From an uncultured Acidobacteriota bacterium (lineage in GTDB: Bacteria > Acidobacteriota > Thermoanaerobaculia > Multivoradales > UBA5704): a DNA stretch of 64,000 nucleotides. Where the stretch lies: positions 1,824,001 to 1,888,000 of the forward strand of contig OY969474.1 of the NCBI GenBank assembly GCA_963700145.1, in the 5' to 3' direction. The number at the start of each line of letters is the position of its first letter. Positions within the stretch are counted from its first letter, which is position 1. Made by a program: the position numbers and the translations under genes. Positions 22,309 through 38,313 of the stretch are shown here, one piece after another. The notes beneath the pieces are model-generated. The model worked only from the letters and a program-made list of their open reading frames with translations. It had not been told where the DNA came from and searched no databases.

Positions 22309-25300
22309 TTGGCACCCTCCAAGATCCTGGACGCGCTCTCCCGCTGGCCGGTCGCCCGGCAGCTCCGCGATGGCGACTGGACGGCCCTCGCCGGCCCCGC
22401 CCGCTCCCCCCGCACCGAGGCCCTCGCCCCCCGCACCGAGCGGGCCGACCGGGTGGTGCGCTCGGTCTGCCCCTACTGCGCCGTCGGCTGCGGCCAGCTC
22501 GTCTACGTCCAGGACGAGCGGATCACCGACATCGAGGGGGACCCGGACTCGCCGATCTCCCGGGGGTGCCTCTGCCCCAAGGGGGCGGCCACCTTCCAGC
22601 TCGTCACCGGCTCGCACCGGGTGAAAACCGTCCTCTATAGAGGACCCTACGGGACCGCCTGGGAGGCCATCCCCCTGGAGCGGGCGATGGACATGGTCGC
22701 CGAGCGGGTCAAGGCGGCTCGCGAGGCCACCTGGGAGGAGCGCCGCGCCGACGGGGCTCCCCTGCGCCGCACGATGGGCCTCGCCCACTTGGGCGGCGCC
22801 ACCCTCGACGACGAAGAGAACTACCTGATCAAGAAGCTCTTCACCGCCCTGGGGGTCGTCCAGATCGAGAACCAGGCCCGGATATGACACTCCGCCACGG
22901 TCCCCGGTCTGGGGACCTCCTTCGGGCGCGGCGGCGCCACCACCTTCCAGCAGGACCTCCAGAACGCGGACTGCATCGTGATCCAGGGGTCCAACATGGC
23001 GGAGTGCCACCCGGTGGGGTTCCGCTGGGTGATGGAGGCGAAGGCCCGCGGCGCGAAGGTCGTCCACGTCGACCCGCGCTTCACCCGCACCAGCGCGGTG
23101 GCCGACCTCCACGTGCCGCTGCGGGCGGGGAGCGACATCGCCTTCCTGGGCGGCCTGGTGAGCTACATCCTCGAGGAGGAGCGCTGGTTCCGCGACTACG
23201 TCGTCCACTACACGAACGCGGCGACCCTGGTCTCCGAGGACTTCCGCGACACCGAGGAGCTGGACGGCCTGTTCAGCGGCTGGGACCCGGAGAGCGGCCA
23301 CTACGACCCCAGCTCGTGGGCCTATGAAGGGGCCCCGGCCTCCGTGCCGACGGCGCACCGCGAGACGACGACCGGCGAGCCCGGCCCCGAGCGCAGCAAG
23401 CACCGCAAGCCGGCACGCACCGACCCCACCCTGCAGCACCCGCGCTGCGTCTTCCAGGTGCTACGCCGCCACTTCGCGCGCTACACGCCGGAGATGGTCG
23501 AGGAGGTCTGCGGCGTGCCGCGCGCCCTCTTCCTGCGCGTCGCCGAGACGATCTGCGCCAATTCCGGGCGCGAGCGGACGACCGCCTTCTGCTACGCCGT
23601 CGGCTGGACGCAGCACACGGTCGGCGTGCAGTACATCCGCACCGCGGCGATCGTCCAGCTCCTGCTCGGCAACGTCGGCCGCCCCGGCGGCGGCATCCTC
23701 GCGCTCCGCGGCCACGCCTCGATCCAGGGCTCGACCGACATCCCGACCCTCTACAACCTCCTTCCCGGCTACCTGCCGATGCCCAAGGCGCCGGCGGACC
23801 GCGACCTCGCGGCCTACCTCGAGCACAACACCGCCGAGACCGGCTGGTGGCACGAGCTCCCGAAGTACGCGGTGTCGCTGCTCAAGGCCTGGTTCGGCGC
23901 GGCGGCGACGGCTGTCAACGACTACCTCTTCGACGCGCTGCCGGCGATCGACGGCGACCACTCGCACATGGCGACGGTGGCGGCGATGGCCGACGGGAAG
24001 GTCAAGGGCTACTTCCTGATGGGCGAGAACCCGACGGTCGGCTCGATGCACGGCGGCCTTCAGCGCGCCGCCATGCGCCGGCTCGACTGGGTCGTGGTGC
24101 GCGACTTCGCGGTCACCGAGAGCGCCGAGGACTTCTGGCGCGAAGCGCCGGAAGAGGTCGAAACCGAGGTCTTCTTCTTCCCCTGCGCCGCGCACACCGA
24201 GAAGGACGGCACCTTCACCAACACGCAGCGGCTCCTGCAGTGGCACCACAAGGCGATCGAGCCGCCGGGAGACTGCCGCAGCGAGCTGCACTTCATGCTC
24301 CACCTCGGAAGGCGGCTCAAGGCGCTCTACGCCGGCTCGACCGACGCCAAGGACCGCGCGCTCCAGGCGCTGACCTGGGACTACCCCACCGTCGGCCCGT
24401 ACGACGAGCCGGACGCCGCGGCGGTGCTGGCCGAGATCAACGGGTACCGCGTGGCGGACGGGGCGCCGGTCGCCGGCTTCGGCGAGCTGGCCGCCGACGG
24501 TTCCACCGCCTGCGGCTGCTGGATCTACTCCGGCTGCTGCGCCGGCGGCGAGAACGGCCCGGCGCGGCGGCGGCCGGCCGGCGAGCAAAGCTGGGTGGCC
24601 CCCGACTGGGGGTGGGCGTGGCCGGCCAACCGGCGGCTCCTCTACAACCGCGCCTCGGCCGATCCCGAGGGGCGCCCCTGGTCGGAGCGCAAGCGCTACG
24701 TCTGGTGGGACGAGGCCGCCGGCCGCTGGACCGGGCACGACGCGCCCGACTTCCCCGTCGACCGTGCGCCTTCCTACCGGCCGCCGCGGGGCGCGCGCGG
24801 CGTGGCGGCGATCGGCGGCGCCGACCCCTTCGTCATGCAGTCCGACGGCCACGGCTGGCTCTTCGCGCCGAACGGCCTCCTCGACGGCCCCCTGCCGACT
24901 CACTACGAGCCGCAGGAATCGCCGATCGAGAACCCGCTCTACGCCCAGCAGCGCAACCCGGCGCGCCTCGAATGGCGGCGCCGCGACAACCCTTACCACC
25001 GCGCCGCGGGCGACCCGCGCTACCCCTACGTCCTCACCACCTACCGCCTGACCGAGCACCACACCGCCGGCGCCATGAGCCGCTGGCTCTCCTGGCTCGC
25101 CGAGCTGCAGCCCGAGCTGTTCTGCGAGGTCTCGCCGGAGCTGGCGGCCGAAAAGGGGCTAGCGCACGGCGGCTGGGCGACGATCTCGACGGCGCGCACG
25201 GCGATCGAGGCGCGGGTGCTCGTGACGCGGCGGCTGCCGGCGATCCGGCTCAAGGGGCGCGTCGTGCACCAGATCGGCCTCCCCTACCACTGGGGGAGCA

Positions 25301-25428
25301 AGGGGCGGGTGCGTGGCGACGCGGCCAACGAGCTGATCGGCTTCGTCGCCGACCCCAACGTCTCGATCCAGGAGTCGAAGGCCCTCACCGCCGACATCGC
25401 GCCGGGGCGGCGGAGCCGGAGCGCCTAG
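22309..25428 (+). CDS. fdnG: Formate dehydrogenase alpha subunit, selenocysteine-containing (in-frame UGA at 22885-22887)
   Basis: TTG start follows a GGAGGA RBS. Contains CPYCAVGCG and ENQARI-UGA-HSATVPGLG, in frame with ORF 22978..25428 (GSNMAECHP, ALRGHASIQG, TYRLTEHH). Confidence 0.92.
22899..22917 (+). promoter_or_regulatory. Bacterial SECIS hairpin
   Basis: Stem-loop GGTCCCC-GGTCT-GGGGACC begins 11 nt after the in-frame UGA. Confidence 0.85.
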
Positions 25429-25430
25429 CC

Positions 25431-26225
25431 GTGGCCGTCGGTTTTTTCACCGACACGACCGTCTGCATCGGCTGCAAGGCCTGCGAGGTGGCCTGCAAGG
25501 AGTGGAACCAGCTCCCCGACGACGGCTTCCACTTCACCGGCATGTCCTACGACAACACCGCCGCCCTCGGCGCCTCCACCTGGCGGCACGTCTCGTTCGT
25601 CGAGCGGCCGGTGGCGCTCTCCGAGCAGCTCACGGGCCTGGGGCAGTTCTCGTGGCTGATGATGTCGGACGTCTGCAAGCACTGCCAGCGCGCCGGGTGC
25701 CTGGAGGCCTGCCCCACCGGCGCCATCCTGCGCACCGAGCACGACACCGTCTACGTCCAGCCCGACATCTGCAACGGCTGCGGCTACTGCGTCACCGCCT
25801 GCCCGTTCGGGGTGATCGACCGGCGCGAGGACGACGGCCGCGCCTGGAAGTGCACGCTCTGCTACGACCGGCTCAAGGGCGCCCTGACGCCCGCCTGCGC
25901 CAAGGCCTGCCCCACCGACTCGATCCAGTTCGGCGAGCTCGACGAGCTGCGCGAGCGGGCGGCGCGGCGGCTGGCGGTGCTCCACGAGCGCGGCGTCGGC
26001 GAGGCCTGGCTTTACGGCGCCGACGCCGCCAGTCAGCCGGGAACTGGCGGCTTGAACGCCTTCTTCCTCCTCGTCGACCGGCCGGAGGTCTACAACCTGC
26101 CGCCCGAGCCGGTCGTGCCGACCCACCGCGCCGGCGAGGCCTGGGGGGCGATGGCGCTCGCCGCGCTCGGCATGGCGGCTGTGGCGCTGGGGTCCGTGCT
26201 GGCAACCCGATCCGGCCGCGGATGA
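25431..26225 (+). CDS. fdnH: Formate dehydrogenase iron-sulfur (beta) subunit
   Basis: CIGCKACEVACKEWN, CKHC...CLEACPTG, CNGCGYCVTACPF and KCTLC...CAKACPT, plus a C-terminal hydrophobic helix. Confidence 0.9.
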   Translation: MAVGFFTDTTVCIGCKACEVACKEWNQLPDDGFHFTGMSYDNTAALGASTWRHVSFVERPVALSEQLTGLGQFSWLMMSDVCKHCQRAGCLEACPTGAILRTEHDTVYVQPDICNGCGYCVTACPFGVIDRREDDGRAWKCTLCYDRLKGALTPACAKACPTDSIQFGELDELRERAARRLAVLHERGVGEAWLYGADAASQPGTGGLNAFFLLVDRPEVYNLPPEPVVPTHRAGEAWGAMALAALGMAAVALGSVLATRSGRG

Positions 26226-27250
26226 CCGATTCCGGCGGCGACGGCCGCTACGTCGATCCAGAGCTCGGCCTCCTCCTCGGCGAAGGCGCGGCGCAGCGGA
26301 TCGCGGCGGGCGAGGCGCGCGAGATCTGGCGCGACGTCGCCGCCAGCCTCCCCGCTCCCGGCGAAGGGCCCACCTACTACGACCGCCCGGTCCTCAAGGA
26401 GCCGGTCTGGATCTGGTCGGTGCCGGTCTACTTCTGGGCCGGTGGCACGATGGGAGCGGCGCTCGCCCTCGGCGGCGCGGCGCAGCTCGCCGGCGGCGAG
26501 GAGCTGCGCCCCTTCGTCCGCCGCTGCCGCTGGGTCGGCGCCGTCGGCGGCGCGGCGAGCGCCGCCCTCCTGATCCACGACCTCGGCCGCCCCGAGCGCT
26601 TCCACCACATGCTGCGGGTCTTCCGCCCGACCTCGCCGATGAGCGTCGGCTCCTGGGTCCTCGCCGCGGCGTCGACCCTGGCCGGCGGCGCCGCCCTCCT
26701 CGGCCGCCGCCGCGGCCTGCTGCGCGGCGCCGGCGACCTCGCCGGCCTCGGCGCCGCCCTCCTCGGCCTGCCGCTCGCCGGCTACACGGCGGTCCTCGTC
26801 GGCAACACCGCGGTGCCGGTCTGGCTGGCGGCGCGGCGAAGCCTGCCGTTCCTCTTCATCGCCTCCTCGATGTCGGGGGCGGCATCGTTTTTCGACCTAG
26901 GCTCCCTCAGACCGCGCGAGGCGAGGATGGTGCGCGCCTTCGGGATCGCCGGCAAGGCCGCCGAGCTGGCGGCGATGGCGGCGGTCGAGAGCGAGGCGGG
27001 ACGCGTCGAGCGGGTCGGGCGGCCGCTCCGCGAGGGGGTCTCCGGCGCCCTCTGGACCGCCGCCAAAGTGCTCACGGCCGCCAGCTTGGCGGCGACCCTC
27101 CTCCCCCGCCGCTCGCGCCGCGCGGGCCTCGCCGCCGGCCTCCTCGGCACTGCCGGCGCCCTCGCCCTCCGCTTCGCGGTCTTCCACGCCGGCAAGGCCT
27201 CCAGCCGCGATCCCCGGGCGACTTTCCTCCAGCAACGCGGCGGCGCCTGA
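26222..27250 (+). CDS. nrfD: NrfD/PsrC-family membrane anchor subunit
   Basis: YYDRPVLKEPVW, LLIHDLGRPERF, SPMSVGSW and YTAVL...W motifs, with many TM helices. Confidence 0.88.
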   Translation: MTDSGGDGRYVDPELGLLLGEGAAQRIAAGEAREIWRDVAASLPAPGEGPTYYDRPVLKEPVWIWSVPVYFWAGGTMGAALALGGAAQLAGGEELRPFVRRCRWVGAVGGAASAALLIHDLGRPERFHHMLRVFRPTSPMSVGSWVLAAASTLAGGAALLGRRRGLLRGAGDLAGLGAALLGLPLAGYTAVLVGNTAVPVWLAARRSLPFLFIASSMSGAASFFDLGSLRPREARMVRAFGIAGKAAELAAMAAVESEAGRVERVGRPLREGVSGALWTAAKVLTAASLAATLLPRRSRRAGLAAGLLGTAGALALRFAVFHAGKASSRDPRATFLQQRGGA

Positions 27251-27416
27251 ATCTCTTTGGTGCCGACTTGCGAAACTTCTCCTGCCTGGGCGATACTCGG
27301 TTGTCCCGATCCGCTCACTGCAGGACACCATCAGGTGCAGAGCCGTCAAGCTAAGCTATAGACGGCCATCTATTTACGGCCGGCACGCCGGCCATCGGAC
27401 GGAGAGGGGAGAAAAC

Positions 27417-27680
27417 ATGAAGCGTTCGCTTATCCGATCCTTGACAGCCCTGGCCGTGACGACTTTGCTTATGCTCGCACTCGCTCCAGCAGCAAACGCC
27501 GCCCCCTGGGGGCTGGCGGTCGAAAGCGGCTTTCGCGGCGCCGGCTGGTTCGAGAGCGCGCGCGAGTGGCTCCAGAGGCTCTTCGGGATGCAGTCGCCCG
27601 CTCCGAAGGCCAAGCAGAAGGCAGTGCAGCCGACCGGCTGCGGCATCGATGGGAATGGGAACCCGACTCCCTGCAGATAG
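27417..27680 (+). CDS. Small secreted peptide precursor 1 (87 aa, C-terminal GCGIDGNG...C)
   Basis: Purine-rich RBS, signal peptide ending ANA, Trp-rich amphipathic segment and DGNG motif. Lies 23 bp upstream of a TPR gene. Confidence 0.7.
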   Translation: MKRSLIRSLTALAVTTLLMLALAPAANAAPWGLAVESGFRGAGWFESAREWLQRLFGMQSPAPKAKQKAVQPTGCGIDGNGNPTPCR

Positions 27681-27703
27681 CTCTCCCTCGGAGGTTGAGT
27701 GCG

Positions 27704-29068
27704 ATGAAGGATCACCCGACCCCACGTGACCTCGAGGACTTCCTCGAGGGTTCGGCTCCCCCCGAAGTGAACCGGGGGGTGGTGCGCCACCTCCTCGCCG
27801 CCTGCACGGCGTGCCGCGGAGCCCTCCAGAGCATGGGATGGCGACCCGAGCGCCTCGAGCGCATCGTCTCCCTGGGCACGAGCAATCCGGAGGAGCTTCC
27901 GGAGTGGACGGTCGGGACCGAGAACCACGACTACGATCGCGCCTTCAGGAGGGCCTGGGAGGCGTGCGTGCAGGAGCTCCATTCGCCGACACCGCAGCGG
28001 CCCTCGCCTGCAGTCGACAGCGCCGACGAGGACCTACAGGTCGAGGAGCTTCTCGTGGGCGCCGAGGATCGTGTCCCCGAGTCCCGTCTGGTCGAGCTGC
28101 TCCTGGCACGCAGCCACGCCGCGCGCTATCGCGATGTCAGGGCGATGCTGCGCTGGGCGCGGTTGGCGCGGATCCTCGCGGAGCGTTGTGACGCAGCCGC
28201 CGCGGGAGGCGAGATCGCCCTCTTCGATTTGAAGGCGCGCGCTTGGGGACAGTGCGGGAATGCGTTGCGCGTGGCAGGCCGTCTGCGTGAAGCGGCAGCG
28301 GCGCTCGATCGATCCGGGACCTATGCTGCCCGGGGAAGTGGGGATGTCGCATTCAAAGCCCAGCTTCTGAGCTGGACCGCGAGCTTGCGGATCTTCGAGC
28401 GGCGATTCGACGACGCGATCACGCTGCTCGACGAAGCCGCTCGCATCGCCCGCAACCTCGGGATGCGAAGCGAGCTGGCGTGGTATCTGTCGAACCGGGC
28501 GCTCGCCACCGTCTACTCGGGCGACCCGGAGACGGCGATCCACATCCTGGACGAAGCGATGCCGCTGATCGATCCTGCGGAGCCCCACCTTCTCGTGGCC
28601 ATCTATCACAACCTGATCTACTGCTACGTCGAGGCCGGGCGGTTGCAAGAGGCCTTGGCGTTGATGCCGCGGACCCGCAGCGTCGGCGAGGAGATCGAGG
28701 ACGAGCTGCTGGGGCTCCGTCTCCTCTGGCAGGAAGCGCGGATCCTCTGCGAGCTCGGGCTCCTCGAGGAGGCCGAAGCCCAGTTCTCGCGCGCCCGCGA
28801 CGGGTTCCTCGAGCGCGACCTCTCGTACGAAGCGGCCGTCGTCTCCCTCGACCTCACGGCCGTCTACGTCAAGCTCGGCCTGCACACCGAGGTGCGCCGC
28901 ACGATCGGCGACATTCTGCCCATCTTCAGCAGCCTCCGCGTCGGCCGCGAGCTCCTCGCCTCGCTCATCCAGCTCCAGCAGGCCGAGGACCAGACCCAGG
29001 CCCTCCAGCTCATCCGCGCCCTCTCCCGCGAGCTCGTCGCCGGGCCCAAGCTGCCGCCGTCGGTTTGA
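27704..29068 (+). CDS. Zinc-finger (zf-HC2-like) / TPR-repeat protein 1
   Basis: GGAGG RBS. N-terminal HLLAACTAC, helical TPR-like repeats (AWGQCGNALRVAG) and C-terminal YEAAVVSLDL...ILPIF. Confidence 0.85.
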   Translation: MKDHPTPRDLEDFLEGSAPPEVNRGVVRHLLAACTACRGALQSMGWRPERLERIVSLGTSNPEELPEWTVGTENHDYDRAFRRAWEACVQELHSPTPQRPSPAVDSADEDLQVEELLVGAEDRVPESRLVELLLARSHAARYRDVRAMLRWARLARILAERCDAAAAGGEIALFDLKARAWGQCGNALRVAGRLREAAAALDRSGTYAARGSGDVAFKAQLLSWTASLRIFERRFDDAITLLDEAARIARNLGMRSELAWYLSNRALATVYSGDPETAIHILDEAMPLIDPAEPHLLVAIYHNLIYCYVEAGRLQEALALMPRTRSVGEEIEDELLGLRLLWQEARILCELGLLEEAEAQFSRARDGFLERDLSYEAAVVSLDLTAVYVKLGLHTEVRRTIGDILPIFSSLRVGRELLASLIQLQQAEDQTQALQLIRALSRELVAGPKLPPSV

Positions 29069-29094
29069 CCGCGGCCGTCCGCCCGGCCCGGCCT

Positions 29095-30126
29095 CTAGGT
29101 CCCCAGCTTCTCCCAGTCGCTGTCCGGGGCGTCCTGGGCGATGGCCAGGCCGCCGTCTGAGCCGACGAAGACCGGGTCCTTGACCACCCGCACCTTGCCG
29201 CCGCCGACCTCGGCGAGCGCGCGCTCGAGGCGCGGCCCGAGGCCGCGGACGAGGCCGGTGCCGCCCGAGAGGACGACGTTGTTGCGCACCCGTTCCTGGT
29301 ACTCGGGCTCGACGCGCGACAGCAGATCGAGCATCGACTCGACGAGCGGCGGCAGGACGCCCTCGCAGGCCTGGCGCATCTCGGCGGTGATGTCGATCTG
29401 CGTCGGCTTGCCCTCCACCGGCACCGTCACCACGACCGGGGCCTTGGTGTCGCCGACGAAGCTCGCCTCCTCCTTCCAGGCGCGCACCATGTGGATCGAG
29501 AAGCGCGCCTGCGGCTGCCGCTCGCGCAACAGGCGGAAGAGCTGCTCATCGATCCAGTCGCCGGCCACGGTCAGCGTGCGCTGGTCGTCCTCGGTCGGCA
29601 GGCGGCCGTTCATGACGCAGAGGTCGGTGGTGCCGGCGCCGATGTCGATGATCATCGAGTGCAGCAGCGCCTCCATGCCGTAGGCCACGGCGAACGGCTC
29701 GGAGACGATGAGCAGGTTGTCCACCGCCCCCTGCAGCGCCTTGCGCACGTGCTGCTTGTTGACCCGCAGCGCCTCGGCCGGCACGCCGACGACGGCGCGC
29801 ACCTTGGCGCCGTTGCGCGCCGCCGGGTCGACGCCGGCCAAGCCCAGGAGGTGGCGCAGGAGCTCGCGCACCGCCGCTTCGTCTTTCTCCGAGCCGTCCT
29901 TGATCAGCCCCGCTTCCAGCGGCCGGTGGAGGTCGAGCATGGTGCGGTTGTCGAGCGCCTCGCGGCCGATCAGCACCGGGCGCTTGAGCACCTTGCGGGC
30001 CACCATGTCGAGCGGCCAGCCGACGTAGCTGTCCACCACGTGGCGCTGGCCGTTGGAAGCGGAGATCGAGCTCCTCGAGGTGCCGAGGTCGATCCCCACG
30101 AGCACGACGTCGGGGCGGTCGGTCAT
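29095..30126 (-). CDS. mamK: MamK-like bacterial actin
   Basis: GIDLGTS, AVVGVP, VSEPF.V.YG, IDIGAGTTD.C, DQ.TL..AG..IDE, PEYQ..V..N.V.SGG, VKDP.F.G and W..LG follow the MamK pattern (recalled from memory) rather than MreB. Confidence 0.8.
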   Translation of the reverse strand: MTDRPDVVLVGIDLGTSRSSISASNGQRHVVDSYVGWPLDMVARKVLKRPVLIGREALDNRTMLDLHRPLEAGLIKDGSEKDEAAVRELLRHLLGLAGVDPAARNGAKVRAVVGVPAEALRVNKQHVRKALQGAVDNLLIVSEPFAVAYGMEALLHSMIIDIGAGTTDLCVMNGRLPTEDDQRTLTVAGDWIDEQLFRLLRERQPQARFSIHMVRAWKEEASFVGDTKAPVVVTVPVEGKPTQIDITAEMRQACEGVLPPLVESMLDLLSRVEPEYQERVRNNVVLSGGTGLVRGLGPRLERALAEVGGGKVRVVKDPVFVGSDGGLAIAQDAPDSDWEKLGT

Positions 30127-30131
30127 CGCGG

Positions 30132-31157
30132 TCAGATTCCTTTCTGGGCGGCGGCGACGCCGGCGGCATAGGTGCGCACGCCGGCGGCGAGCGCCTCGGC
30201 GATCGCCTGCCGGTAGTCGGGGCTGGCGAGCAGGCGCGCCTCCTCCTCGTTCGAGAGGCAGGAGACCTCGGCCAGCACCGAGGGCATCTCGGTGGTGATG
30301 AGGACGATGAAGGGGGCGGCCTTGACGCCGCGGTCCTGGAGCGCCGGGTTGGCCGGGGCGAGCGAGCGGACGAGCGACCCCTGGAGCACCTCGGCGAGTC
30401 GCCGCGACTCCACCTGGCGCACGTCGGTGTAGATGCGTTCGAGGAGCGGCTTGAGGTCCGCCAGCGAGTAACCCGAGTCGTGGTTCTCGGCGGCGGCGAG
30501 GCGGTTGACGATGGGGTCGTCGCTGGCGCCGGCGTAATAGGTCTCGACGCCGCGCGCCGCGCGGTCCTCGATCCAGTTGAGGTGGATCGAGAGGAACAGG
30601 TCGGCGCCGGCCTCGTTGGCGAGCCGCGCCCGCTCCTTGAGCGGCACCTCGCGGTCGCCGCGGCGGGTCAGCACGGGCTCGAAGGCGTCGGCCGCGAGGC
30701 GGCGCGCGAGGCGGCGGGCGATGTCGAGCGTCAGCTCCTTCTCGAGCGGCCCCTGCGCGGCGCGGGTGCCGAGGCTGGCGCCGCCGTGGCCGGGGTCGAT
30801 CGCCACCCGCCGCACCGCGAGCGGGAAGACCGCGGGGTCGATCGGCCGCGGCGCGGGGAGGAGCGCGGCGGCGCGGGCGGCCGACGGCACCGCGAGCGCC
30901 GGCGCGGCGGCAGGGGTCGCCGCGGCGGCCGCCCGGGGGGCCTCCCGGCCGCCGCGGCCGCCGAGGAGCTGCGAGGAGCCGTAGAGCGCCACCGGCAGCA
31001 GCAGCACCACACCGAGGCGGAGCACCTCGCGCCCCAGCCAGCGCCGGCGCCGCCGCCGCGGCGGCAGGCCGTGGATCAGCTCGAGGTTCTCTTGCACGAG
31101 ATCGCGGAGCAGACGGCGCTTGCGCCGGGCGGAGAGCGCGGGCAGACCCAACGGCAC
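30132..31157 (-). CDS. Membrane-anchored N-acetylmuramoyl-L-alanine amidase (Amidase_3)
   Basis: N-terminal TM helix, then IDPGHGG, EKELTL, FLSIHLN, GVETYY and MPSVLAEV. Confidence 0.92.
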   Translation of the reverse strand: MPLGLPALSARRKRRLLRDLVQENLELIHGLPPRRRRRRWLGREVLRLGVVLLLPVALYGSSQLLGGRGGREAPRAAAAATPAAAPALAVPSAARAAALLPAPRPIDPAVFPLAVRRVAIDPGHGGASLGTRAAQGPLEKELTLDIARRLARRLAADAFEPVLTRRGDREVPLKERARLANEAGADLFLSIHLNWIEDRAARGVETYYAGASDDPIVNRLAAAENHDSGYSLADLKPLLERIYTDVRQVESRRLAEVLQGSLVRSLAPANPALQDRGVKAAPFIVLITTEMPSVLAEVSCLSNEEEARLLASPDYRQAIAEALAAGVRTYAAGVAAAQKGI

Positions 31158-31223
31158 GACGGCGGCGGTTCCTCGGAAGTTGCTCGATTAAATACGGTTG
31201 CGGAGTGTACTACAGCTCGCGCC

Positions 31224-32639
31224 TCAGCCCCGGCCCAAGCGCACGACAAGCGCGCCGTCCACCTCGCGGACGGCGCGAACCACGACCCCGCGGTCGGCCA
31301 GGTCGAGCACCAGGTGGAGCTCGTCCTCTCCCGGCAGCACGTGGTGGCCGGTGCGCACCTGCTTCAGGTGCGGCGAGCCGACGGCGAGGAGGGCGCGGCC
31401 GAACGGGCGCTCGACGCCGCGGATGCGGAAGACCTCGCGCGGCGCCGGGCCGTCGAGGCGGTCGCGGGCGTAGCCGCCGGCCGCGATCGGCCCGTCACCG
31501 CGGATCGTCACCTCCGTCTCGCCGTCCACCTGCCGCCAGTCGATGCTGCGGATCGCGGTGAGGCGGACCGTGGGTGCCGGCGCGGGCGCGGCGGCGGCCG
31601 GCGGAGGGGCGGCCGGCTCCGCGAGGGTCGGCGGTTCGGCGCCAGGAGCGGCGGCGGCTGCCGCGGCGGTGTCGTCGCCGACGAGCGCCGGGAGCGGCTC
31701 CGGGATGGCGTCGTCCGAGGCGGCCGCCGCGGACGCCGGCGCTCCGGCCGGCGGCGCCGCCGGCGTCTCGGCGGTGGCAGTGGCCGAGCGCGCCGCCGGC
31801 CCCCGCTCGGGCGCCGCGCCGTCGCCGCCGAGGAGCCCGAAGCGGCGCATCAGGGGCTCCTGGAAGGCGAAGGCCGCCACGCCCAACGCGACGACCGCCA
31901 GCACCGCGGCGAGAGCGGCGATCCGCCGTGGGCTCCTCCGCTCGGGCGGGGGCGCGGCGGCGGCGTACGTGGCGAGCGGCGCCGGCGGCACCGGGAGAGG
32001 GGGCGGAGGCGCGGCGAGCGGCGCCGGCGCCGGCGCGACGATCGGCTCGACCGGCGGCCCGAAGGTCCGCGCCGCGAGGTCCGGCAGCGAGAGCGAGGCG
32101 AGCGCCGGGTTGGAGACGACGGGAAGAGGGACGGCGGCTACTTCCACTTCCACGTCGCCGGCCTCTTCCACGTCGCCGGCCTCGCTCGCCTCGTCCGCGG
32201 TGTCCAGCTCGCCGCTCTCGCTCTCCGCGACCGCCGCCGCAGCGCTCGTTTCCGCCTCCGGCCCCTGCTCGACGTCGAAGGGAATCCCCCCCTCGTGGAT
32301 GTACTCGTCCACCATCTTGTAGATCAGCTCGCGGCTCCCCTTCGACAGCCGCAGGAAGCGGATCCCCATGCCCGCGGGCTTGGCGGCGCCCTGGTCGTCG
32401 CTGCGGGTCCAGACGACCTCGCCGGTGCCCTTGATCAGCGGGTAGCCGTCGCCGAGCTGGAACTCGAAATCGAGGAGGGTCCCGACCGGCGAGGGGGCCT
32501 GCGTCTTGACGAACAGGCCCCCCGGCGAGACGTTGGAGGAGTACTCGCTGATGAAGCCCGAGAAGCGCTCGAAGCGGAGCTGTACCCGCGTCTCGAGCGG
32601 TACCCGGCGGGAGTCCCGCGAGGTGGCGTAATCCGTCAT
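31224..32639 (-). CDS. PilZ (TIGR02266-type) - linker - TM - AMIN-like domain protein
   Basis: RDSRR (RxxxR) and NVSPGG (NxSxxG) PilZ motifs plus GMGIRF. Pro/Ala linker, one TM helix, C-terminal LDGPAPREVFRI...VRTGHH...LHLVLDL AMIN-like domain. Confidence 0.8.
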   Translation of the reverse strand: MTDYATSRDSRRVPLETRVQLRFERFSGFISEYSSNVSPGGLFVKTQAPSPVGTLLDFEFQLGDGYPLIKGTGEVVWTRSDDQGAAKPAGMGIRFLRLSKGSRELIYKMVDEYIHEGGIPFDVEQGPEAETSAAAAVAESESGELDTADEASEAGDVEEAGDVEVEVAAVPLPVVSNPALASLSLPDLAARTFGPPVEPIVAPAPAPLAAPPPPLPVPPAPLATYAAAAPPPERRSPRRIAALAAVLAVVALGVAAFAFQEPLMRRFGLLGGDGAAPERGPAARSATATAETPAAPPAGAPASAAAASDDAIPEPLPALVGDDTAAAAAAAPGAEPPTLAEPAAPPPAAAAPAPAPTVRLTAIRSIDWRQVDGETEVTIRGDGPIAAGGYARDRLDGPAPREVFRIRGVERPFGRALLAVGSPHLKQVRTGHHVLPGEDELHLVLDLADRGVVVRAVREVDGALVVRLGRG

Positions 32640-32717
32640 CAATGACTGCTCAATTGCAGGAGTGGAGAGAGTAGTGCCCCGGACCGGGGCAGTCAACAAC
32701 CGACGCGCCCGCCGGCG

Positions 32718-33989
32718 TCAGGTCGTGCGGCGGCGCTCGCGCTTCAGGAACTCGGCGAGGTGGCGGGCCAGCTCGAGGGTGAGGGTCTCCTCCTCGGCGG
32801 CGTGCTGGAACATGAGGAGAGCGGCCATCGCCTCGCGGTGCACCTCGCGCGACTCGAAGACCGGCAGGAGCTCGGCGGCGAGCTGCTTGAGCTCGGCGGT
32901 GCACCCCTCTTGGGCGTAGAGCATGGCGAGGTCGAGCGAGACGAGCGCCGCGTCGTAGCCCATGCCGCGTTCGAAGAACTCCTTCTGCACCTCGCGGAAC
33001 GACGCCTCCGCCGCGCCCAGCCGCCCGAGGCCGAAGGCGATGCGCCCTTCGGCCCAGGCGACGCGGACGAGGTCGAGAGGGTTGCGCTGGTCGAGCGCGA
33101 CGCGGCGCAGCTCGGGCAGCGCTTCTTCGGCCTCCCCGTGCTTGCCCGCGGCGATGAGCAATGCAACCAGATTCAGGTGGGAGCAGAAGATGAGACGCGG
33201 CTCGCGGAGCGGATCGAGCAGGGGGCTGGCCTCGTGCAGGAACGCGATCGCGGGCTCGAACTCTCCCTGCTCTTCCAGCACCGAGGCCTTGTTGATGAGG
33301 GACCTGCCGGCGCGGTGGAGGTCGCCCAGCTCGCGGAAGATGTCGATCGCTTGATCGAGCAGGGTCAACGCCTCGCCGAACCGCCGCTGGCCGCGCCGGA
33401 GCGACGCTTTCAGGTCGTAGACCTCGGCGCGCACCTTGAGATTGCCCGTCGTGCTCGTCGCCAGGAAAGTCTCGGAGCGCCGAAACGCCTCGTCGGCGCT
33501 CCACAGCTCCCCGAGCACCCGCCGAGCGTTGCCCAGATGAGCCCAGCACTTCGCTCGGAGGTCGGTGACCCAGTGCGGGTCGTAGGCTTCGCCGGGAAGG
33601 AGGTCGGCGATCCGGACGCCGAGCTCGGCGAACGAGACGGCTTCGGCCGGGTCGTCCAGGGCCGCCTCCAAGCTGCGCTTCAAGAGGAGCTGACAGAGCC
33701 CCCACGTCTGCAGCTCGCCGTCCTGGTCGATGCGCGCGAGCCGCTCCTCGAACGGCAGATCGGCTAGACGGGCGAGCTGCTCCGGGGCGCGCAGCCCTTC
33801 GTTGACCACAATCACTTCGTTCCAGTGCTCGACCTGCTCTTGGAGGCGCAGGATCTCCTCGCAGCGCTCGCGACAGGTAGGACAGTGGGCGAGGAAGTGA
33901 GGAATGACGTGTCGCTGGAGATCCTCGTACGGCAGCTCTCCGGAAAGCCAGCTCGCGAGCGCCTCCATCGACAGATGTTCATTCCTCAC
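32718..33989 (-). CDS. Zinc-finger (zf-HC2-like) / TPR-repeat protein 2
   Basis: GTG follows a GGAGG RBS. N-terminal HFLAHCPTC, CWAHLGNARRVLG and C-terminal YDAALVSLDL...LLPVF make it a clear paralog of 27704..29068. Confidence 0.85.
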   Translation of the reverse strand: MRNEHLSMEALASWLSGELPYEDLQRHVIPHFLAHCPTCRERCEEILRLQEQVEHWNEVIVVNEGLRAPEQLARLADLPFEERLARIDQDGELQTWGLCQLLLKRSLEAALDDPAEAVSFAELGVRIADLLPGEAYDPHWVTDLRAKCWAHLGNARRVLGELWSADEAFRRSETFLATSTTGNLKVRAEVYDLKASLRRGQRRFGEALTLLDQAIDIFRELGDLHRAGRSLINKASVLEEQGEFEPAIAFLHEASPLLDPLREPRLIFCSHLNLVALLIAAGKHGEAEEALPELRRVALDQRNPLDLVRVAWAEGRIAFGLGRLGAAEASFREVQKEFFERGMGYDAALVSLDLAMLYAQEGCTAELKQLAAELLPVFESREVHREAMAALLMFQHAAEEETLTLELARHLAEFLKRERRRTT

Positions 33990-34078
33990 TCCGATGCCTC
34001 CTAGAGGTAACAGAGTCCGGGCAGCCGGTGCCCCTTCTAGATCATCTGTTTCCAAACTCGGCGATTTCGTGACAGGGA

Positions 34079-34294
34079 CTAGCCGTTCGGATCTCCCGCC
34101 AGCCCCTCCTGCTCCCAGATCCCCGCCAGACCCCTCCACACCCGCTCCACGGCCTCCAGCATCCAAGTACGGCCCGGGGCGGTGATCCGCCCTTCGTGGC
34201 GGTCCCGGCCGCGGCTCCAGGCGGCGGCGGGGACGGTGCCGAGGGCGGCGAGCAGGACGAGGGCGGCGAACGCCCGGTTCCATCTCCTAGACAT
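34079..34294 (-). CDS. Small secreted peptide precursor 2 (71 aa, C-terminal EGLAGDPNG)
   Basis: GAAGGAGA RBS, signal peptide ending AAA, Trp-rich amphipathic segment, ends in DPNG. Directly upstream of TPR gene 2. Confidence 0.7.
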   Translation of the reverse strand: MSRRWNRAFAALVLLAALGTVPAAAWSRGRDRHEGRITAPGRTWMLEAVERVWRGLAGIWEQEGLAGDPNG

Positions 34295-34500
34295 GGTCTC
34301 TCCTTCTTCCCGGGGCGGGTCCCTGGACGCTCTAGTGCGGCCCGGGCCAAGCCTCCAGAAACAAAGTTGACCCGTCCGGAACAAACGTGACATCGGAGGA
34401 GATAACTTTTCGCCCTTTTCGGCACCCCTTGGCCGCCATTTGGATCGCCGCCCGGCAGGCGCTGTGGTACAAAGGGCCGACTTTTTCGCCCGGAGGGACA

Positions 34501-36714: not shown

Positions 36715-38309
36715 ATGAAGTGCCCCGGCAGCGCCCCCGCCTCGCCACGCTCTCGCCGCGCGGCGTTGGCAGCGCTCGCCGCCCTGGCGCTCGCCTGCGC
36801 CGGTCCCGGCGGCGGCGAACCGCGGAACGAGACGGACCCGCCCCGCCCCTCCGGGACGCTGCGTGTCGCCCTCCGCGCCGCGCCCCGGACGCTCAACCCC
36901 AACACCTGGGACGAGGCCGCCGGCTCGGTCGGCCGCAACCTCTACAACCAGCTCGTCTCCCTCGACACCGACCTCCACCCGATCCCGGACCTCGCCCGCT
37001 CCTGGGAGGTCTCGGCGGACGGTCTCGCCTACACCTTCCACCTCGCGGAAGGGGTGACCTGGCACGACGGCCGCCCCTTCGGCTCCGGCGACGTCGCCTG
37101 GACCCTGCGCGCGCTGCGCTCCGAGAAGGCCTTCGCCGGCGACCTCGCGGCCCGCATCGCCGCGGTCGAGACCCCCGACGCCGCGACCGTCGTCGTCCGC
37201 CTCACCGAGCCCTGGGCGCCCTTCCTCACCACCCTCGCCTGGTATGGCACCTACATTCTGCCGCGCCATCTCCACGCCGGCGCCCCCTTCGGCGAGGCCG
37301 CCGCCGACCGCGCGCCCGTCGGCACCGGCCCCTTCCGCCTGGCGGCCTGGGAGCCGGAACGGATCGTGCTCGCCGCCAACCGGCGCTACTTCCGTCCGGG
37401 GCCGCACCTGGAGCGGCTGGTCTACCGCGTCCTCGCCGAGCCGGACGCGGCGTCGGCCGCCCCGGTCCTGCGCGGCGAGATCGACTACCTGGCGCTGCGG
37501 CCGCGGCCGGACCTGATGCAGGCGCTGCGGCGGGCGCCCGAGCTGGTCCTCGACAGCCGCCCGAGCGACGCCCGCTACTACGCCGGCTTCAACGTCCGGC
37601 GCCCGCCCTTCGGCGACCTGCGGGTGCGCCGCGCCGTCAACATGGCTCTCGACCGCGAGGCCCTCGTCGAGCGCGTGCTCGCCGGCTACGGCGCCCCGGC
37701 CTACGGCTTCTACACGCCGGCCGTCGCCTGGGCCTTCAACGAGCGGGCGCGGGCGCCGGCCTTCGACCCGGCGGCGGCCGCGGCGCTGCTCGACGCCGCC
37801 GGCCTGCGCCCGGGCGCGGACGGCGTCCGCTTCTCCGCCACGCTGGTCTGCCCCGACGCCGCGCCGTACACCGGCCTGGCGCGCGAGATGACGCGGCAGC
37901 TCGCGGCCGTCGGGATCGCGCTCGACGTCGAGGCGCTCACCGTCGACCGCTACCTCGACCGGCTCCTCGGCGGGCGCGACTTCGACCTCGGCCTCATGGG
38001 CGGCAGCCACGGCCCGGACCCCGCGAACCTGGAGATCCGCTTCGGCGCCCGCGGCAAGCAGCAGTTCATGGGCTACGCCGACCCGGCACTGGATCGGCTG
38101 CTGGCGCGCGGCGCCCGGCAGACCGACCCGGCGCTGCGCGCCCGCGCCTACGACCAGGCGCAGGCGCTCCTGGCGCAGACGCTGCCGATGGCGCCCCTCG
38201 CCGAGGCGGTGGGGTTCGTGGCCTACCGGCGCGGCCTGGCCGGGCTGCCCCAGGGCGACGCGCGCGGCCTCGTCGCCGGCGGCGACTTCAGCCTGGCACG
38301 GTGGCGGCG

Positions 38310-38313
<4 letters not shown>
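36715..38313 (+). CDS. ABC-type substrate-binding lipoprotein, family 5 (peptide/nickel)
   Basis: Lipobox LAC, PDLARSWEVSADGLAYTFHL..GVTWHDG, PVGTGPF and VRRAVNMALDR. Confidence 0.9.

Follow-up and report, generated by a model that had tools for sequence, protein, structure and literature searches.

Introduction

Cytoplasmic receptors built of tetratricopeptide repeats (TPR) and paired with small peptide genes are known from the RRNPP(A) systems, of which Rap-Phr, NprR-NprX, PlcR-PapR, PrgX, Rgg-SHP and phage AimR-AimP form the comparison set used here. The accessible parts of the RRNPP literature place the family in Bacillota and Gram-positive bacteria (PMC10075063, PMC9765709, PMC11343458, PMC12998947), a term search of the available part of PMC9765709 returned no mention of other phyla, and tandem pheromone copies within propeptides have been described for Rap-Phr and RRNPPA systems in the available part of PMC11343458. 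TPR domains also appear in the control of extracytoplasmic function (ECF) sigma factors. According to the accessible part of PMC11506125, DdvA joins an anti-sigma domain to TPR repeats, and the main text of the ECF classification, which cautions that soluble anti-sigma variants may be missed, names TPR only for the ECF42 extensions and for the FecR-like protein of ECF267 (PMC7826278). Here we analyze two loci in a stretch of 64,000 nucleotides from the genome of an uncultured Acidobacteriota bacterium of the class Thermoanaerobaculia (contig OY969474.1, positions 1,824,001 to 1,888,000; hereafter the window), at each of which a small open reading frame (ORF) with the features of an exported pro-peptide adjoins the gene of a larger protein that combines an N-terminal zinc domain with a TPR domain.

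In cassette 1, on the forward strand, small ORF 1 (P0003, 87 aa, 27417..27680) is followed after 23 nt by the gene for the candidate receptor and regulator P0001 (454 aa, 27704..29068). Cassette 2 lies on the reverse strand, with small ORF 2 (P0004, 71 aa, 34079..34294) separated by 89 nt from the gene for P0002 (423 aa, 32718..33989). The two cassettes belong to a large, so far undescribed family in soil Acidobacteriota that, as judged from sequence, resembles Gram-positive peptide quorum sensing; no description of such a system of peptide and anti-sigma-TPR protein was found in the literature searched, outside of which lay the supplements of the ECF classification (PMC7826278). We put forward the reading, to which we give an even chance, that each cassette is a two-gene RRNPP-like peptide-signalling module with an anti-sigma output. 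The original prediction, made from the letters of the window, had proposed an RRNPP-analogous system at these loci, and the present analysis supports that proposal in part.

Results

The pairing of small ORF and TPR gene recurs throughout the genome to which the window belongs (5.46 Mb, one contig). This genome encodes 14 full-length paralogs of the large TPR protein, all 14 of which show the N-terminal pattern H-P...L..F..G.L.......V..HL..(x)C..C. A scan of their upstream regions located, at 12 paralogs, a co-oriented small ORF whose start is signal-like and whose product contains a Trp-rich stretch and, at its C-terminus, [ILMVG]D[PG]xG. A regular expression that called for a signal-like N-terminus and for [ILMVG]D[PG]xG among the 30 C-terminal residues returned, from the 71,315 open frames in the genome, 13 ORFs, 12 of them being those just 5′ of a TPR paralog. 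A profile derived from 12 peptides recovered a thirteenth, upstream of the paralog near 4.275 Mb, and genome-wide it gave no match below E 0.04 beyond the 13 members, all of which lie at paralogs. The peptide ORF is thus present at 13 of the 14 paralogs and absent at a single full-length copy, near 3.646 Mb. As 12 of the 13 ORFs retrieved by expression and all 13 retrieved by profile lie at TPR paralogs, the association is not a chance one.

The same partnership extends to related genomes. The closest named homologs of P0001 are labelled Thermoanaerobaculia bacterium and derive from metagenome-assembled genomes. At E<=1e-20, the TPR family is found in 37 of 101 sampled genomes of the class, a tally that includes the genome under study and the unpublished G004. 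It is expanded in the organism's own taxonomic family, with at least 16 matches in each of the genomes G041, G065 and G097, and G020, of the same order, has 14 matches. We scored 48 stretches around the TPR genes of relatives with TPR, peptide and sigma profiles, and counted pairings for zinc-finger/TPR genes with a complete N-terminus when a peptide ORF lay at most 1000 nt upstream. Such an ORF precedes 25 of 34 of these genes in the three same-family genomes (10/12 in G097, 10/15 in G065 and 5/7 in G041), and several of the genes that lack it are second tandem copies or follow immediately on an ECF sigma gene. Searched over whole genomes, the peptide profile of alignment A2 (described below) matches 21 times in G065, 32 times in G097 and 29 times in G041, gives two weak matches in G020 and none in G010. 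The recurrence of upstream signal-peptide ORFs ending near D[PG]xG, which is one part of what the original prediction had named as support (the other being co-variation with the TPR), makes the pairing of a small secreted-type ORF with a TPR protein a conserved family trait and not a coincidence of two loci.

The reverse test in G065, starting from the peptides, reveals greater variety in how the partners are arranged. Among 19 peptide-profile matches at E<1e-4, 18 adjoin a TPR gene of the same family: 12 are co-oriented with and upstream of a zinc-finger/TPR gene, five are convergent with genes for HTH_3(XRE)+TPR proteins, with 3′ ends 30-75 nt apart, and one is divergent from a family TPR gene. 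The remaining match has no TPR neighbour within its 4.8 kb stretch. The TPR part of the HTH_3+TPR proteins matches the family profile (E 1e-56 to 1e-64) and their N-terminus is an HTH_3/XRE helix-turn-helix (HTH) DNA-binding domain, a combination also present in distant database homologs of P0001. A receptor of this kind next to the gene of a small secreted pro-peptide is the classical RRNPP arrangement. In a FastTree of TPR domains, read without root or support values, the five HTH+TPR proteins form one clade beside a P0002-like clade, and a phmmer search of one of these relatives against the Protein Data Bank (PDB) gave no match. The peptides convergent with HTH_3+TPR genes (loci L115, L116, L118, L120 and L121) have repeated Cys-loop cores, such as C-T-I-D-P-S-G-A-R-C, and an additional family TPR gene stands alongside at L115, L118 and L121.

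Of 22 TPR homologs from further families of the class, among them one non-carrier from the unpublished G004, nine are followed after 60-130 nt by a small signal-peptide ORF and none is preceded by one. These downstream ORFs encode an amphipathic Trp/Leu helix and end in IGPPIG, LGPPTG, MGFPPG, IHVPIG or QAPIG. They were observed at loci L053, L055, L056, L058, L061, L065, L066, L067 and L068, and some repeat their end internally, as in AGEIHFPPG / GGEIHVPLG. Read across all these loci, the constant feature is a TPR domain adjoining the gene of a small, predictedly exported peptide, while order, orientation, peptide core and output domain vary. A partnership kept through three gene orders and two output domains constitutes the strongest comparative argument for direct cooperation between peptide and TPR protein.

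The small ORFs might be chance open frames in GC-rich DNA and their pairing an annotation illusion, given that at approximately 72% GC spurious long ORFs are plentiful and the window contains many overlapping frames. Several counts argue otherwise. The genome contains exactly 13 profile members, all at paralogs, the three relatives contribute 21-32 peptide-profile matches per genome, and 4069 representatives of a large protein library match the profile (see below). Both window ORFs are preceded by purine-rich candidate ribosome-binding sites read from the sequence: GGAGAGGGGAG (27401..27411, +), 5 nt short of the ATG at 27417, and GGAAGAAGGAGAG (34298..34310, -), 3 nt short of the ATG at 34294. 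Comparison of ORF 1 with metagenome contigs of close strains places all three listed differences inside it (27452, 27533 and 27545) at third codon positions. The 11 indels listed all fall outside ORF 1, eight of them in the non-coding stretches before it and between the two genes; this comparison rests on the differences listed, besides which there are 53 further ones. One paralogous pair of peptide genes is free of indels over 330 nt, with 11, 7 and 18 differences at the three codon positions, and the 200 nt upstream of the same pair are just 30% identical when compared ungapped. As far as sequence can show, these counts refute the chance-frame explanation, which we regard as next to impossible. 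The two cassettes stand at the coordinates given in the original prediction, ribosome-binding sites included.

Sequencing runs with matching DNA are metagenomes of soil, rhizosphere and roots, and no run contains more than 0.46 of the sampled words. RNA library X20 yields two short contigs (27359-27574 and 27699-27941) over the starts of ORF 1 and of the TPR gene, which by themselves do not show transcription.

The small proteins share a layout that is readily compared with that of peptide precursors. In alignment A2 (33 members), a signal peptide ending near P-A-x-A is followed by a spacer and by a helix with two conserved Trp positions, and the C-terminus often reads W-E-x-E-G-x-x-[ILMV]-D-P-[ND]-G. 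Signal peptides were assigned by eye from the n-region, the h-region and the AxA pattern, together with Kyte-Doolittle hydropathy. ORF 1, which matches the peptide profile at E 8.7e-20, starts with a predicted Sec signal peptide (residues 1-28, A-N-A then A; 27417..27500, +) consisting of a basic n-region and a hydrophobic core whose 19-residue Kyte-Doolittle mean (KD19) peaks at 1.95, at residue 5. The Trp-rich amphipathic stretch W44-G57 (27546..27587, +) follows, with the W..W column pattern common to the 33 family members, and after a linker the Cys-flanked core C75-G-I-D-G-N-G-N-P-T-P-C86 (27639..27674, +) closes the protein. D78 within this core is an invariant column of the alignment, and the core, perhaps closed into a loop by a disulfide, is a candidate mature peptide. 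ORF 2, itself a row of A2, matches the profile at E 3.5e-15 and comprises a signal peptide (maximal KD19 1.96), a Trp-rich helix (W44-G58) and a C-terminal end at exactly W-E-Q-E-G-L-A-G-D-P-N-G. Its core, E63-G71 (EGLAGDPNG; 34082..34108, -), fits the family consensus W-E-x-E-G-x-x-[ILMV]-D-P-N-G and is likewise a candidate mature peptide. As anticipated in the original prediction, the peptides of the two cassettes differ and retain the D[PG]xG core. By BLASTP they show no similarity to each other (E 0.67) and are linked solely via the family profile, and scans of Pfam and NCBIfam returned no family for either small protein.

We tallied 51 peptides, 13 from the genome under study and 38 from the three relatives. 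The D[PG]xG core is present in 50 of them, 21 carry 2-4 tandem copies of it, eight end exactly at the core Gly, and in 17 the core is flanked by two Cys. Against a library of 1.84 billion proteins the peptide profile matched 4069 representatives with E<=0.001, of which 300 reach E<=1e-10, and most of the matches are 85-150 aa long. Ten of these library proteins were read, and they include precursors with 3 to about 10 cores, Cys-looped in five.

The two large proteins are paralogous (33% identity, E 9e-52), and the motifs that the original prediction listed as shared are found within their alignment. Both start with H-x4-C-x2-C, and neither has a transmembrane-like segment, their maximal KD19 values being 1.28 and 1.52, to be compared with 1.95 and 1.96 at the N-termini of the small ORFs. 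For P0002, the GTG at 33989, preceded by AGGAGG, was chosen as the start because it is needed to take in the invariant first His of the family. In P0001 the N-terminal domain spans residues 1-55 (27704..27868, +), with candidate zinc ligands H4, H29, C34 and C37; in P0002 it spans residues 1-50 (33840..33989, -), with H5, H31, C36 and C39, and provides row 2 of alignment A3. Across the 50 N-termini in A3, H4, C34 and C37 are invariant and H29 is conserved in at least 90%. For comparison, the ligand positions of ChrR are H6, H31, C35 and C38. The canonical H-x3-C-x2-C spacing occurs in about 10 of 55 family N-termini, as counted by eye.

The 62-residue profile of A3 was searched against 177,635 PDB sequences and returned five matches below E 0.001, all of them anti-sigma factors: DdvA (3.4e-7 and 7.2e-6), RslA (4e-5) and ChrR (about 1e-4, twice). 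The next match had an E-value of 0.23. Residues 3-45 of P0002 also match, weakly, the RseA anti-sigma model of NCBIfam (E 0.012), and an AlphaFold2 (AF2) model of the isolated N-terminal domain has four helices with a predicted local distance difference test (pLDDT) score of 84. An ECF sigma gene (Pfam Sigma70_r2 + r4_2) stands between the peptide and TPR genes at two tandem loci of the genome and is divergent at a third, so that the sigma gene is linked at 3 of the 14 paralogs. The linked subfamily counts four genes in this genome, the fourth standing alone, and among relatives 8 of 39 genes are immediately preceded by a sigma gene of this subfamily. By its profile matches, then, the N-terminal domain is an anti-sigma-type zinc domain, in agreement with the zinc-finger assignment of the original prediction, and in the window copies it may control a sigma factor.

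The remainder of the large proteins is predicted to be a TPR superhelix, and Pfam finds TPR families alone in both. In P0001 the superhelix covers residues 127-445 (28082..29038, +; TPR_12, 3.4e-14). In P0002 it covers approximately residues 95-415 (32745..33707, -; TPR_12, 2.5e-12; TPR_MalT, 1.2e-9), which align with residues 119-441 of P0001. The AF2 model of P0001 (mean pLDDT 81.6) is all-helical, with disorder at about residues 56-125 forming a linker between the two domains; over residues 121-440 most of the 10-residue blocks average 80-98, and two fall lower, to 78 and 69. In a Foldseek search with this model, the best template-modelling (TM) scores were obtained for peptide-bound phage phi3T Rap and for RapF-PhrF (TMq 0.55, TMt 0.66-0.68), so that a structural comparison suggested by the original prediction places the TPR domain nearest, by TM-score, to peptide-bound Rap receptors. 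The superposition on Rap has a root-mean-square deviation of 4.7-5.1 A over about 338 columns, and RapH, RapI, RapJ, pLS20 Rap and NprR were also among the matches. At the level of sequence, the TPR profile A1 matched NprR (2.4e-5) and Rap105 (5e-4) in the PDB, both ranking below many generic TPR proteins. We read the likeness to Rap, which is drawn from a model, as a resemblance of fold and presumably of use, not as proof of common descent.

Between the two cassettes, and flanked by both, lies a cluster of three genes on the reverse strand (29095-32699): a PilZ-domain protein (32699-31224), which begins 18 nt past the stop of the cassette 2 TPR gene, an Amidase_3 cell-wall amidase (31157-30132) and an MreB/actin-like protein (30126-29095), all assigned with Pfam. 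The genes of cassette 1 run convergently towards the end of the cluster. G065 (L074) has the same succession of peptide, TPR, PilZ, amidase and MreB-like genes, G041 (L107) has TPR, PilZ and amidase in this order, and in G097 the cassette 1 orthologs adjoin an MreB-like gene. On the evidence of this spacing and conserved order, the PilZ, amidase and MreB-like genes may form an operon with cassette 2 and be its candidate output. The other neighbours scanned in the window are an aminotransferase (Aminotran_3), an SBP_bac_5 protein and a 330-aa ORF without Pfam match, and no sigma family was detected by Pfam among the neighbours scanned beside cassette 2 and downstream of cassette 1. The SBP_bac_5 gene, encoding an oligopeptide/dipeptide-type binding protein, is located at 36715-38313 (+), 2.4 kb from cassette 2, and is one of three SBP_bac_5 genes in the genome; uptake of a peptide through a system of this type is conceivable. 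Upstream of cassette 1 (22978-27250, +), as far as can be read from the translations, the products resemble the large subunit of a molybdopterin oxidoreductase (formate-dehydrogenase-like), a 4Fe-4S subunit and a membrane subunit.

The gene content of the neighbourhood bears on a further interpretation, already named in the original prediction, according to which the small ORF is the precursor of a ribosomally synthesized and post-translationally modified peptide (RiPP) and the TPR protein serves to recognize it or as its scaffold. The conserved core, the variable leader-like part and the potentially cross-linked Cys pairs of the small, precursor-like ORF would suit such a system. The scan of window neighbours, however, detected no modifying-enzyme family and no linked leader protease or exporter, the precursor has a Sec signal peptide instead of a RiPP leader, and the partner bears a regulatory anti-sigma or HTH domain. 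We therefore consider the RiPP-like interpretation very improbable.

A few observations concern the cassettes elsewhere in the genome and their upstream regions. The thirteenth peptide gene, near 4,274,656-4,274,890 (L011, outside the window), has no stop after ...GGGVDPY and its frame runs into the region of the next gene; it may be a decaying copy or reflect a sequence error. At L037, L039 and L043, 3′ of the paralogs near 3.385, 3.108 and 3.888 Mb, there is a second, shorter TPR-like frame of 275-322 aa, weakly similar to P0002. When the 220 nt 5′ of the 13 peptide genes were searched for a common promoter motif, GC-rich hexamers alone came up, plus GCACTA in 6 of 13, and no convincing promoter of ECF type or sigma-54 type. 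The hexamer sits 40-95 nt 5′ of the peptide gene in those six loci, and it occurs in the window at 34331-34336 (-), 5′ of ORF 2. Three closely related paralogs have TGGCACTAT-N-GAATGCGGGCG in common upstream of the peptide gene.

Discussion

The proposed signalling module would operate as follows. The small gene would yield a pre-pro-peptide exported by Sec, from which the signal peptide would be removed and the pro-region with its amphipathic Trp-rich helix cut away. This would free a short peptide around [ILMV]-D-[PG]-x-G, namely the Cys-flanked loop CGIDGNGNPTPC in cassette 1 and the free C-terminal ...GLAGDPNG in cassette 2. The peptide would build up outside the cytoplasm and then be re-imported, probably through an Opp/Dpp-type transporter, before binding in the groove of its cognate cytoplasmic TPR superhelix. 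Binding would alter the hold of the zinc anti-sigma domain on an ECF sigma partner and thereby switch transcription. The genome under study would possess 13 such channels with different peptides, and in relatives the same pair of peptide and TPR would be wired to an HTH DNA-binding domain in place of the anti-sigma domain.

A number of findings weigh against this mechanism, and those on the side of the peptide can be considered first. The amphipathic helix is conserved, which is not expected of a mere pro-region. P0129 (669 aa) and P0199 (731 aa) are secreted-looking proteins with about 25-30 tandem xDPxG units, and their existence means that the motif could be a structural or metal-binding repeat. 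In both proteins the repeats are mostly trailed by Arg or Lys and lie between globular-looking ends; they could be polyprotein precursors as well as a structural or metal-binding repeat. The partnership itself is incomplete, as 9 of the 34 zinc-finger/TPR genes of same-family relatives have no peptide ORF, and in G010, G015, G053 and G020 (same order) none of five such genes has a peptide-profile match upstream.

The conserved helix and the DPxG repeats fit a regulator accompanied by a regulated product. The TPR protein would sense something else, and the small exported protein would be a co-transcribed envelope output that never meets it, working whole outside the cytoplasm as an adhesive, metal-binding, membrane-active or envelope protein. 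ECF operons often carry co-transcribed extracytoplasmic genes, and the small and TPR proteins are predicted to reside in different compartments. The family-wide conservation of the Trp-rich amphipathic helix is what a functional mature protein would display, and the DPxG repeats of the 669-731 aa secreted proteins suggest a structural repeat. Shared transcription alone, however, would hardly account for a pairing that outlasts the exchange for an HTH domain and changes of order and orientation, convergent genes not being co-transcribed. The peptides also diverge fast outside a core of 5-8 residues, and ending at the core Gly or repeating it 2-4 times looks precursor-like. Finally, a genome has 13-30 copies in parallel, every one beside a TPR partner of its own, as would fit specific recognition. 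On balance we deem a regulated envelope product unlikely, yet the most serious of the rivals to peptide signalling.

Further difficulties for peptide signalling concern transport, binding and output. A peptide exported by a diderm must cross the outer membrane or stay within it. No processing protease or dedicated importer is linked to the cassettes among the neighbours scanned, and the SBP_bac_5 gene of the window is followed by a long histidine-kinase/receiver-like ORF (to about 40814, read from translation) and not by permease genes. The best E-value in the Foldseek search belongs to the peptide-binding TPR of LGN/Pins (1.3e-6), ahead of Rap, and the likeness to Rap is one of fold, at 12-14% identity. 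Prediction of a complex between P0001 (A1) and the mature small protein (A2, residues 29-87) scored 0.10 and 0.06 against a mark of 0.32, in runs that had no controls, and is taken neither for nor against binding. As for the N-terminal domain, the window copies have H-x4-C-x2-C, one residue more than canonical, plus an invariant upstream His. Pfam zf-HC2 was matched by 2 of 20 members (best E 0.024), with no match for P0001 and none for P0002 at E<=1, and Foldseek on the isolated N-terminal model returned nothing significant, the best row being RsiW (E 2.6), with ChrR and RslA among the weak rows. By profile, no ECF sigma of the linked subfamily lies near either window cassette, and most paralogs share this lack.

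The requirement for re-import would disappear if the TPR protein sensed the precursor before export, binding the C-terminal core of the unexported protein as a dedicated chaperone or secretion monitor; the anti-sigma domain would then signal the flux of export and not an outside cue. Secretion substrates often have TPR proteins as chaperones, the products of the two adjacent genes, 23 nt apart in cassette 1, arise in one compartment, and no uptake step is required in a diderm. A general secretion monitor would not need at least 13 distinct pairs of peptide and receptor, however, and tandem cores and Cys loops suggest an extracytoplasmic mature product, with disulfides forming outside the cytoplasm. 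The convergently encoded HTH+TPR partners are also closer to pheromone receptors than to chaperones. We consider sensing before export quite improbable.

Peptide signalling, if it is the correct interpretation, has implications beyond the window. A wider proposition, which we advance tentatively and rate as somewhat short of an even chance, is that soil Acidobacteriota of the class Thermoanaerobaculia run a peptide-pheromone network, in which 13 to about 30 orthogonal exported xDPxG peptides, linear or disulfide-looped, would act on their own TPR receptors, gating ECF sigma factors or HTH domains. If so, RRNPP-type signalling between cells would be seen for the first time outside Gram-positive bacteria, and an anti-sigma factor gated by a peptide would likewise be without precedent. 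Such a network would widen the range of bacterial communication by placing RRNPP-like logic in a diderm soil phylum with a dozen or more channels per genome, add a new form of ECF sigma control through a soluble, ligand-gated anti-sigma factor, and provide a set of short, genetically encoded and probably orthogonal ligand/receptor pairs. In that case the conserved morphogenesis cluster of PilZ, cell-wall amidase and MreB-like genes would be under the control of the window cassettes.

Comparison with known systems

ECF42, which has a C-terminal TPR extension, and ECF267, which has a FecR-like anti-sigma with TPR, likewise employ TPR repeats for regulation or sensing within an ECF switch. In those groups, unlike in the window, the TPR is fused to the sigma factor itself or to a FecR-like membrane protein, and the main text of the classification mentions no linked peptide gene (PMC7826278). 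The resemblance to zinc-binding anti-sigma factors (ZAS) such as ChrR, RslA, RsiW, RsrA and DdvA consists of a helical N-terminal domain with a His/His/Cys/Cys pattern; some family members also have an ECF sigma gene immediately 5′ of them. The window copies depart from ZAS in their H-x4-C-x2-C spacing; most family copies, both window copies included, have no sigma gene alongside; and a peptide gene accompanies the putative sensor, a cytoplasmic TPR domain. A further contrast is with DdvA, a transmembrane protein whose TPR-CHAT part is periplasmic; the window copies are predicted to be soluble and have no transmembrane helix.

From the RRNPP(A) systems the cassettes differ in their host, a diderm Acidobacteriota and not a member of Bacillota, and in the output of the window copies, which is a zinc anti-sigma domain, a type of output not known from RRNPP, instead of an HTH or Rap-type 3-helix domain, HTH_3+TPR being found in relatives only. 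They are also distinguished by the conserved D[PG]xG core, often Cys-looped, and the conserved amphipathic helix, and sequence relatedness of the receptors is marginal, NprR appearing among generic TPR matches and the HTH+TPR member alone giving none. The likenesses to RRNPP(A) concern the organization of the system. Both are two-gene modules in which a small Sec-type pro-peptide gene lies beside that of a cytoplasmic TPR receptor, the modelled fold of the window receptor superposes on peptide-bound Rap, and the C-terminal end of the pro-peptide would supply the active part. Further common features are propeptides with tandemly duplicated cores and many paralogous channels per genome, and the receptor in G065 even has the HTH_3+TPR architecture.

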